A program made the position numbers and the translations under genes. The notes beneath the pieces were generated by a model. That model searched no databases. It had not been told where the DNA came from and was given only the letters and a program-made list of their open reading frames with translations. DNA of 39,704 nt from Escherichia phage K1F, in sequence record NC_007456.1; one strand, 5' to 3'. This document shows positions 785 through 2,496 of the stretch, piece after piece; positions within the stretch are counted from its first letter, which is position 1; each line of letters starts with the position of its first letter.

Positions 785-1030
785 ATGAAACACTTAAGCA
801 CAATCACTAATCGCAATGAAGTATTCGTGAACACTAAAGGTTATGCGTGGATTCAGCTTAAAGAGATGACAGGAGCGCGTCACCGTGTGGTAGTGCGCAA
901 GGTCTCAAGCAAGCCGTTCAGCAACTACAGCGTAGATACTGTGCGTATAAACAACGAGACCTACCTGATAGACTCACAGATAACCGTGAGTCCTACAGCG
1001 GGCGTCTCAGCTCCTTATTTCGCTAACTGA
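785..1030 (+). CDS. Hypothetical early protein (82 aa; alternative start 776)
   Basis: ORF with AAGGA 9 nt upstream of ATG 785; first ORF after putative early promoter; no recognised homolog. Confidence 0.5.
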   Translation: MKHLSTITNRNEVFVNTKGYAWIQLKEMTGARHRVVVRKVSSKPFSNYSVDTVRINNETYLIDSQITVSPTAGVSAPYFAN

Positions 1031-1113
1031 GAGTGATTAACTACAGGTCGTTAGACTGCTAGCGGCCTGACTGATAGTCACTAACACATACTTAACTTTG
1101 AGAGGATATACCT

Positions 1114-1623
1114 ATGGAACGTAACGCTAACGCATACTATGAGCTGCTGGCTGCAACTGTTGAGCTGTTCAATGAGCGTATTCAGTACGACGAAATAACT
1201 GAAGGCGATGACTACAGCGATGCGCTGCATGAGGTCGTAGACGGTCAGGTTCCGCACTATTACCACGAGATTTTTACGGTGATGGCTGCTGATGGTATAG
1301 ACCACGAGTTCGAAGACTCTGGGCTGATGCCTGAGACCAAGGACGTAACGCGTATACTACAAGCTCGCATCTATGAGGCGCTGTATAACGATGTGTCTAA
1401 TAGCTCTGAGGTGGTCTGGTTTGAGGCTGAAGAGGAAGACGAAAAGGCTGAATATTGGGTAGTTGACACTAGAACAGGCGAGATAATTGAGGCAGCTGTA
1501 TCACTTTACGAGGCTATTGCATGTGCAAAAGAACTCTATGAGGAAGGTTTTCACATGCAGGTCGAAGACATCAACGATAACGTAGTGTTCGATCCTGCGG
1601 CTGCTGAGGAGGACTGCGAGTGA
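1114..1623 (+). CDS. 0.3: Ocr-like anti-restriction DNA-mimic protein (gene 0.3), 169 aa with C-terminal extension
   Basis: Strong similarity to T7 Ocr core (NERIQYDEI...[45 protein letters not shown]); highly acidic; SD GAGAGGA upstream. Confidence 0.9.
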
Positions 1624-1839
1624 TGGTAACTTATGGTCTCTGCCAGCACCACGTCACCAGCGCCCGGCTTATAGTCCAGACCGGGCGGTTAACCCATGAT
1701 GAGACTATGCGTCTCCTGAAGGTGGTCTACAAGCGCCGCAAGCGTATCCACGACAGTTTGCACGCTGAGTGATAGACGAGAGGCCGTCGACTGATAGGTG
1801 GCCTCAAAGATTATCACTTAAATTGATAGGAGTTAACTA

Positions 1840-2007
1840 ATGAAATTTACAATCATCGCACTTTACATCGCCAGCATTCTGTCATGGCTAACTGCGGTCA
1901 TAGTCGATGGGAATGCACTACGTCTTGGCTGGCTGGCAGTGGACATAATATTCTCTCCGGTAGGGATCGTGCGCGGTCTACTGATGTGGATTGGACTGGC
2001 GGGATAA
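1840..2007 (+). CDS. Small hydrophobic early protein (55 aa)
   Basis: ATG with AGGAG SD (taggagttaactaATG); two hydrophobic segments; not in ORF track (<60 aa). Confidence 0.45.
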   Translation: MKFTIIALYIASILSWLTAVIVDGNALRLGWLAVDIIFSPVGIVRGLLMWIGLAG

Positions 2008-2010
2008 TCT

Positions 2011-2208
2011 ATGAGTCTTGCACTATTGATAGCCATAGGCTATGGACTTATCGCCTACGTGCTGGTGAGAGACATCGACAAAGCGCGTAAAGTCTACAAA
2101 TTCAACTATGTACGTCTGGGCCGCTGGACTGTACGTCAACCTAACGGACGATTCATGCGCAACTTAGCGAACGTCTGGGATATAGCAACTATTGGGAGCA
2201 AACTGTAA
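2011..2208 (+). CDS. Small early protein (65 aa), N-terminal hydrophobic segment
   Basis: ORF track 2011..2208; starts 4 nt after previous ORF stop; position like T7 genes 0.4-0.6. Confidence 0.4.
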   Translation: MSLALLIAIGYGLIAYVLVRDIDKARKVYKFNYVRLGRWTVRQPNGRFMRNLANVWDIATIGSKL

Positions 2209-2288
2209 TGAAAACCGTATACATTAACAGACCATCTATCCGTTAGCAGTGTAGAGCAATACAGCGTGACGTGTTCTTACACCGCCGC

Positions 2289-2468
2289 ATGGAGGCTGAG
2301 GGCCATAAGTCCGAACTGATGTGTCTGGCGTATGGTGGACGACCGATCACTGACGATGGTAAACTTTTAGTCTCAGGCTGGAAGGCGATAGACCAACGGT
2401 CAACCATCAAGCACACGACTCACGGTGACTTCAGTCATCTTCACGCTAACCCACTGATATGCAAGTAA
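2289..2468 (+). CDS. Possible small early ORF (59 aa from ATG 2289; track gives GTG 2271)
   Basis: Open frame ending just upstream of promoter at 2474; no clear SD. Confidence 0.2.
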   Translation: MEAEGHKSELMCLAYGGRPITDDGKLLVSGWKAIDQRSTIKHTTHGDFSHLHANPLICK

Positions 2469-2473
2469 TTATG

Positions 2474-2496
2474 ACTTAACTATCACTATAGGACTC
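2474..2496 (+). promoter_or_regulatory. Phage RNAP promoter copy 1 (ACTTAACTATCACTATA|GGACTC), upstream of the RNAP gene
   Basis: Matches the 11-copy consensus; located 70 bp upstream of gene 1 start. Confidence 0.7.

Follow-up and report, generated by a model that had tools for sequence, protein, structure and literature searches.

Gene 0.3 of Escherichia phage K1F (sequence record NC_007456.1, analyzed over its whole stretch of 39,704 nucleotides (nt), hereafter the window) codes for an extended relative of Ocr, the textbook DNA-mimic anti-restriction protein, which inhibits type I restriction-modification (R-M) and bacteriophage exclusion (BREX) systems and triggers PARIS. On balance, we favor the view that the product of this gene is built of two parts, an Ocr mimic and an optional protein-binding module acting in cis, that the module has been repeatedly lost, and that the absence of a gp0.7 kinase from this phage is unrelated to it. 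The Ocr assignment and the lack of gene 0.7 are already evident from the public annotation, and the latter, taken alone, is ordinary; what is new is the module, which carries no family assignment. In the K1F records NC_007636 and AM084414, the same open reading frame (ORF) is annotated as gene 0.3, "ocr-like anti-restriction"; the phage belongs to the genus Kayfunavirus. The gene and its parts, the latter defined in part with the help of AlphaFold2 (AF2) models and the ratio of nonsynonymous to synonymous substitution rates (dN/dS), are as follows.

1114-1623, plus strand: gene 0.3, ATG start, 169 codons and TGA; assigned to PHROG phrog_2568, "ocr-like anti-restriction" (E 4e-57).
1114-1422, plus strand: Ocr DNA-mimic domain, residues 1-103, recognized from Pfam, PDB, the AF2 model, and charge.
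1423-1449, plus strand: acidic linker, residues 104-112 (EAEEEDEKA), of variable length among homologs.
1450-1596, plus strand: C-terminal globular module, residues 113-161 (49 residues), beta-beta-alpha-beta-beta in the AF2 model.
1552-1596, plus strand: near-invariant motif starting with H, residues 147-161, recognized from the alignment and dN/dS; predicted beta3-beta4 hairpin.
1597-1620, plus strand: acidic tail, residues 162-169 (AAAEEDCE), present in long and short alleles alike.

At 169 amino acids (aa), the K1F protein exceeds T7 Ocr (117 aa) by 52 residues, in line with the difference of about 50 given in the original prediction, which also quoted the C-terminal sequence correctly. 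The excess had been described there as an acidic, aromatic C-terminal extension. Such an extension is real; it is, however, not a simple tail, and in the AF2 models it appears as a separately folding module carried on an acidic linker. Structure prediction of the extension, which had been proposed as a check, yielded a confident beta-beta-alpha-beta-beta module: for the 60-aa extension alone, the predicted local distance difference test (pLDDT) score was 89 and the predicted template modeling (pTM) score 0.73, with strands at 5-9, 15-20, 39-42, and 48-50 and a helix at 22-34. The same elements were recovered in the full-length model with pLDDT of 86-91 in those blocks, the linker being modeled as coil. 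Over the full length, the pTM score reaches only 0.60, consistent with a flexible tether. Across homologs, the length of the linker varies from 0 to ca. 20 residues.

To monitor selection on the gene, dN/dS was calculated by the Nei-Gojobori method over 13 long alleles. The values were 0.155 for the Ocr domain (residues 1-103), 0.29 for the module (residues 113-161), 0.40 for residues 113-146, and 0.064 for the motif (residues 147-161). The first two strands and the helix, including the helix face, are the fastest-evolving part of the module. We conclude that the module is conserved under purifying selection. The synonymous rate (dS) in the motif is 0.60, which indicates that the constraint is on the protein and not on the DNA; an element acting at the nucleotide level beneath the conserved 3' end of the module was considered and ruled out, since dS there is above that of the rest of the gene.

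More than 115 protein clusters, with lengths of 162-179 aa, retain the extension in an unbroken frame, and it is therefore not a translation artefact. In the collection searched, the Ocr domain was found in 566 phage records. A K1F-type module is present in 69 of these, all with genomes of ca. 39-41 kilobases, and a divergent module, 24-28% identical, in 10 more, including Stenotrophomonas phage IME15, five Aeromonas phages, Escherichia phage Ebrios, and Kosakonia phage Kc166A. Altogether, 79 of the 566 Ocr-bearing phage genomes, about one in seven, code for an extra folded domain. The divergent module is joined to Ocr at the same point as the K1F-type module, and V, A, G, VE, and P positions are invariant across both subfamilies. 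The selection on the protein indicates that the extension is a functional domain and not an artefact.

Eight Kayfunavirus-like loci code for a short Ocr of 110 or 114 aa, whose N-terminal domain is 90-95% identical to that of K1F. DNA alignment revealed that the short alleles are the long allele minus the module, produced by clean in-frame deletions. Three types of deletion junction were observed, all lying within direct repeats of acidic codons (GCTGARGAGGA, GARGAGGAY, and GACGAG). The relevant sequences in K1F are the following.

1426-1436, plus strand: upstream direct-repeat copy, GCTGAAGAGGA, identical to 1603-1613 at 10 of 11 positions.
1603-1613, plus strand: downstream direct-repeat copy, GCTGAGGAGGA, 177 nt (59 codons) from the copy at 1426-1436.
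1457-1459, plus strand: GGG run at the start of the module, with an extra G in metagenomic relatives.

A deletion between 1426-1436 and 1603-1613 generates exactly the 110-aa allele present in three of the loci (L010, L011, and L013), and recombination or slippage at the repeat copies is the best explanation that the sequences offer for the deletion alleles. In three further loci (L003-L005, from Logan assemblies SRR33193082-84 of three related samples), the run at the start of the module reads GGGG, resulting in a 117-aa Ocr and an overlapping 59-aa ORF; this extra G is either genuine, marking a loss allele, or an error of assembly in the homopolymer. The in-frame deletions, together with the frameshift allele, in close relatives make the module optional. 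In a neighbor-joining tree of flanking sequence, the short alleles are scattered among the long ones, and the module was probably lost several times. According to the original prediction, an earlier stop in homologs would mark the extension as a translation artefact. Earlier stops do exist, as the 110- and 114-aa alleles and the one frameshift; they do not refute the extension, however, since the short forms are in-frame deletions of a module that is under purifying selection and recurs in other genera.

Based on these results, the following mechanism can be proposed. The Ocr domain (residues 1-103) would, by homology with T7 Ocr, act as an orthodox DNA mimic that dimerises and fills the groove in which type I R-M and BREX methyltransferases bind DNA; for T7 Ocr, dimerisation and blocking of both kinds of enzyme are established (PMC12707154; PMC7261183). 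The module, tethered by the flexible acidic linker, may act in cis with Ocr as a protein-binding add-on, altering which host complexes the mimic engages or how the mimic is recognized, and would be dispensable for core anti-restriction. Close relatives have probably deleted it repeatedly by recombination or slippage between the flanking acidic-codon repeats, and a trade-off in target engagement could explain why loss is so frequent. The idea in the original prediction that the extension broadens anti-defence activity (type I R-M, BREX) or adds a second function is thus a plausible one. Several points weigh against this scheme. Any function of the module is a matter of inference; frequent loss could mean that the module contributes little; the AF2 alignments were shallow and made of close relatives (effective number of sequences ca. 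1.9), so that the fold rests mainly on the prior of the network; and the flanking-sequence tree is short, lacks bootstrap support, and is possibly affected by recombination.

Relatives of the module were sought by sequence and by structure. A Pfam scan gave no match to the module even at E values up to 10, no sequence match was found among PDB profiles or in NCBIfam, and the PHROG that covers the module is the Ocr family itself, with nothing separate. A phmmer search of 1.84 billion representatives returned, outside Ocr, only two giant cadherin-repeat proteins (E 4e-10). A cadherin-like calcium-binding motif was considered and rejected: the match comes from a D-V/I-N-D-N (DVNDN) string multiplied over 13 repeats, and since this string is absent from the IME15-type subfamily, which has VEDDTSSEV, the match was treated as chance. 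Neither that scan, nor a scan of IMG/VR (known loci only), nor a hidden Markov model (HMM) of the module run over the collected loci revealed the module apart from Ocr. The sole return of a word-index protein search for the module outside Ocr was the 59-aa product of the frameshifted gene. Foldseek comparison of the module with the PDB gave nothing below E 0.37, with ribosomal protein L7/L12 as the sole high-probability match, while comparison with BFVD gave a 170-aa protein at E 5e-3, probably another long Ocr, followed by many small uncharacterised phage proteins. In the literature searched, neither an extended Ocr nor the module was found to be described.

We conclude that the fold of the module is a small two-layer alpha/beta one of a generic kind, as in ClpS and L12, and that nothing points to homology with any characterised family. 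ClpS and the C-terminal domain of L7/L12 are 11-19% identical to the module and give no profile match, so that the likeness is a resemblance of fold and not a sign of membership; the module shows neither the sequence or profile homology of the ClpS adaptor family nor its full core with the N-degron pocket. ClpS has ca. 85 residues in the order beta-alpha-alpha-beta-alpha-beta, which differs from the beta-beta-alpha-beta-beta of the module. T4 antitoxin Dmd and anti-CRISPR proteins AcrIF9 and AcrIIC3, all alpha/beta sandwiches, gave weak scores at 8-18% identity. They are free-standing, whereas the K1F module is always fused to Ocr.

These searches bear on the possibility that the module is an independent small early protein, fused to Ocr merely as a carrier that secures the earliest expression, and directed at another host target, for example as an inhibitor of a toxin or an inhibitor like Dmd or the anti-CRISPRs. 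We regard this as unlikely: the module was found neither free-standing nor in other fusions in the phmmer, IMG/VR, and module HMM searches, and the fold matches lie below the level usually taken as homology. In addition, the point of attachment to Ocr is shared by two subfamilies that are only 24-28% identical, which suggests that the two parts of the protein work together.

A related possibility, to which we likewise assign a low probability, is that the module is an anti-defence or sensor-evasion domain carried on each Ocr monomer, conferring a second specificity by blocking a PARIS-type sensor or by binding a second defence component. If this were true, the repeated gain and loss of the module within one genus would record an arms race with hosts that require or detect it.

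That the module simply lengthens the DNA mimic, adding negative surface so that the dimer covers more of the DNA path and binds R-M or BREX enzymes more tightly or more broadly, seems to us distinctly doubtful. In K1F, the net charge of the module is -10 over 49 residues, which equals the charge density of the Ocr domain, and both linker and tail are acidic. Against this, the charge is only -4 in the commonest allele and -6 in Kc166A, and such lack of conservation argues against plain lengthening. The module is, moreover, predicted to be a compact alpha/beta sandwich on a flexible linker and not a continuation of the helical rod, relatives without a module are common, and an appendage on T7 Ocr weakened BREX inhibition (PMC7261183).

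We consider it improbable that the module shields Ocr from sensors such as PARIS (AriA), or is itself sensed by some hosts, and is gained and lost for that reason. Presence/absence polymorphism within one genus with several independent loss alleles would fit, as would the rapid evolution of the helix face (dN/dS 0.40) and the retention in the Ocr domain of F54, a change of which lets T7 escape PARIS (PMC12707154). A dispensable module placed between deletion-prone repeats, however, explains the polymorphism equally well.

Finally, an extension that is non-functional read-through, an annotation artefact, or a decaying remnant, as short alleles and one frameshift allele might suggest, is very hard to reconcile with dN/dS of 0.29 (0.064 in the motif), a frame that is intact in more than 115 clusters, a confidently predicted fold, and cross-genus conservation at 24-28% identity with invariant core positions.

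The original prediction had also paired the extension with the lack of a homolog of gene 0.7, the T7 protein kinase and host shut-off gene. The lack itself was verified. A tblastn search of the whole window with T7 gp0.7 gave a best E value of 0.98, and the proposed HMM search for a kinase, conducted with a profile of 34 gp0.7 homologs over 655 six-frame ORF segments of the window, gave a best E value of 0.81, with positive controls at 1e-79 to 1e-178. RefSeq annotation of K1F contains no protein kinase, only a nucleotide kinase, gene 1.7. The early region at 1623-2566 holds only small ORFs, as had been stated, namely genes 0.35 (49 aa), 0.36 (55 aa), 0.37 (65 aa), and 0.38 (86 aa). The pairing, in contrast, did not survive comparison with other phages. 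No 0.7 homolog is present in any Kayfunavirus-like locus from IMG/VR, be it one with a long or with a short Ocr, and the eight short-Ocr loci lack one as well, while Ebrios and IME15 have both a module-bearing Ocr and a full-length 0.7 kinase. We conclude that gp0.7 is generally absent from this group of phages and that its absence has nothing to do with the module. The co-occurrence of extension and kinase absence in K1F could still be read as compensation for the missing kinase or host shut-off, to which we give practically no credence, since eight short-Ocr loci lack 0.7, Ebrios, IME15, and Klebsiella phage SAKp10309 carry both module and 0.7 homolog, and the module has no similarity to gp0.7.

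Two of these phages deserve a description of their own. In Ebrios (L082, MG966531, 971-3387), genes for a T3-type S-adenosylmethionine hydrolase, a 174-aa Ocr with the module, and a gp0.7 kinase stand in a row, and this T7-like phage, judged from its genes, carries two different anti-restriction strategies side by side. SAKp10309 (L077, PV904160, 2020-2754) is K1F-like, with a long Ocr and a 245-aa protein whose match to T7 gp0.7 is confined to the kinase part (32% identity over residues 21-218), the C-terminal shut-off region being absent. In GenBank records MH400309 (Vec13), OM355495 (ZH4), MZ398247 (IME177), and LT594300 (LM33_P1), and in phage CY1, the Ocr-like gene is labeled "protein kinase". 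These gene products share 80-95% identity with K1F gp0.3 and contain no kinase domain; the label is apparently an annotation error that has been propagated.

The natural long and short alleles found within one genus of therapeutic interest, which includes phages of K1-capsule hosts, constitute a ready isogenic comparison, one that bears on how appendages tune the target range of a mimic or its visibility to host sensors. The analysis also corrects annotation: the "protein kinase" labels can be removed, and gene 0.35 can be named as a gp0.4-family protein. The signals and genes around gene 0.3 are listed below.

703-772: second bipartite RNA hairpin, 5' of gene 0.2 (z -4.7).
1026-1090, plus strand: bipartite RNA hairpin just 5' of gene 0.3 (fold -25.8 kcal/mol, z -4.8).
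1100-1106, plus strand: Shine-Dalgarno sequence GAGAGGA of gene 0.3, 7 nt before the ATG, read from the sequence.
1606-1613, plus strand: Shine-Dalgarno sequence GAGGAGGA of gene 0.35, inside the tail codons of gene 0.3, 9 nt before the ATG.
1623-1772, plus strand: gene 0.35, 49 aa, whose ATG overlaps the TGA of gene 0.3; annotated only as "gp0.35 protein".
1840-2468, plus strand: genes 0.36, 0.37, and 0.38, small early genes with no kinase.
2476-2493, plus strand: first K1F-type phage promoter, at the end of the early region and just 5' of the RNA polymerase gene.

None of 200 shuffled sequences was as stable as the hairpin at 1026-1090. A 20-nt repeat, CCTGACTGATAGTCACTAAC, is found at 749-768 and 1066-1085 and forms an identical arm in both hairpins, those of genes 0.2 and 0.3. 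By analogy, the two hairpins resemble the sites at which RNase III processes the early transcript of T7, the model for this reading being the T7 RNase III site R0.3. A smaller hairpin lies 3' of gene 0.35, at ca. 1780-1805. The K1F-type promoter, TWAACTATCACTATAGGR, has 10 matches in the window, all on the plus strand, versus 0.03 expected by chance (2476-2493, 5554, 7185, 8501, 17179, 20000, 20999, 25323, 32599, and 38854). The gene order is 0.1, 0.2, 0.3 ... 1, and gene 0.3 precedes both the first phage promoter and the gene for the phage RNA polymerase; by analogy with T7, the early region that contains it would be transcribed by the host polymerase. Being located before the first promoter and after an RNase III-like hairpin, gene 0.3 is most likely immediate-early and host-transcribed, like T7 0.3. 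A scan of positions 1-2700 for sigma-70 promoters and terminators gave no signal exceeding shuffles. Two adjoining 21-nt direct repeats, AGACTACAAGTGAAAGACCAA and AGACTTTAAGTGAAAGACTAA, are located at 2505-2548, between the first phage promoter and the start of gene 1.

Bases 700-2600 of NC_007456.1 and the corresponding part of NC_007636/AM084414 are 99.9% identical. In gene 0.38 (2208-2468), a 14-nt stretch at 2244-2257 is one base off relative to NC_007636, since a base is inserted at 2244 and a deletion near 2258 restores the register. The shift introduces an in-frame TAG at codon 13; either the two K1F records differ through sequencing, or gene 0.38 is a real pseudogene here.

Long and short alleles alike preserve the DNA sequence of the GAGGAGGA stretch, and the EEDCE tail is kept in every allele likely because its codons carry the Shine-Dalgarno sequence of gene 0.35. 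The arrangement of the two genes indicates that gene 0.35 is translationally coupled to gene 0.3. In hhalign comparison, the gp0.35 family matched the T7 gp0.4 family with a probability of 92% and E 6.7e-7 over 40 columns, and a relative that matches K1F gp0.35 at 71% identity in tblastn carries the precomputed Pfam assignment PF26807 (Phage_T7_GP04). The proteins are similar in size (49 aa for gp0.35, 51 aa for T7 gp0.4), and in both phages the ATG overlaps the stop codon of 0.3. By these sequence measures, gene 0.35 is a homolog of T7 gp0.4, of the PF26807 family. T7 gp0.4 is an inhibitor of FtsZ.

Since T7 gp0.4 begins where Ocr ends, as does the K1F extension, and since a KELYE string is common to both, the extension was also considered as a fused gp0.4. 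This was rejected at the profile level (hhalign probability 0.85%, E 0.065, 18 columns), and a pairwise BLASTP match between the two covered 11 residues only.

The closest known system is T7 Ocr (gp0.3, PF08684, 1S7Z), with which the K1F domain shares 60% core identity, matching helices, and acidity. Pfam "ocr" matches residues 7-99 of the K1F protein with E 3.6e-32 and 111.3 bits (cut-off 25), bearing out the original identification as an Ocr homolog, and a gap-free alignment of residues 8-111 with T7 Ocr (PDB entries 1S7Z and 2Y7C) has an E value of ca. 1e-27 (1.4e-27 for 1S7Z). The AF2 model of the domain is a four-helix, all-helical monomer (helices 7-26, 35-45, 50-60, and 75-95, pLDDT mostly above 90) with a long last helix, a layout like that of 1S7Z. 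The dense negative charge typical of the family is present, with a net charge of -18 for residues 1-103 versus -28 for the 117 residues of T7 Ocr. Residues I53, F54, and V56 are invariant in the homolog alignment, which is consistent with a conserved functional surface. The two 0.3 genes occupy the same class I early position, and in both phages the next gene is of the gp0.4 family, with its ATG overlapping the stop codon. The difference lies at the C terminus: T7 Ocr lacks the linker and the 49-residue globular module found in K1F and ends in a short acidic tail, and its last 7 residues are dispensable (PMC7261183).

The second known system is the T7 0.3-0.7 fusion, in which a spontaneous deletion between 12-bp repeats puts 121 residues of gp0.7 on Ocr; the fusion still defeats EcoKI, is ca. 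10-fold worse against BREX, and undergoes truncations for which BREX+ cells select (Isaev et al. 2020, PMC7261183). Among our loci, a natural counterpart of this laboratory fusion, a 0.3::0.7 deletion fusion, was also encountered: in L053 (906-1328 of IMGVR_UViG_638277131, 37,555 bp), a 140-aa Ocr has the last ca. 35 residues of gp0.7 at its C terminus, and 71 nt further on the RNA polymerase gene begins. The T7 fusion and the K1F protein are alike in having a C-terminal appendage on Ocr and in that, in both cases, this region has undergone deletion between short direct repeats. They differ in that the T7 appendage is the C-terminal part of gp0.7, accidental and selected against on BREX+ hosts, whereas the K1F module is dedicated, conserved, and unrelated to gp0.7. 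Thus, the data on the T7 fusion indicate that C-terminal appendages on Ocr are tolerated and alter its target spectrum, and that this region is prone to deletion.

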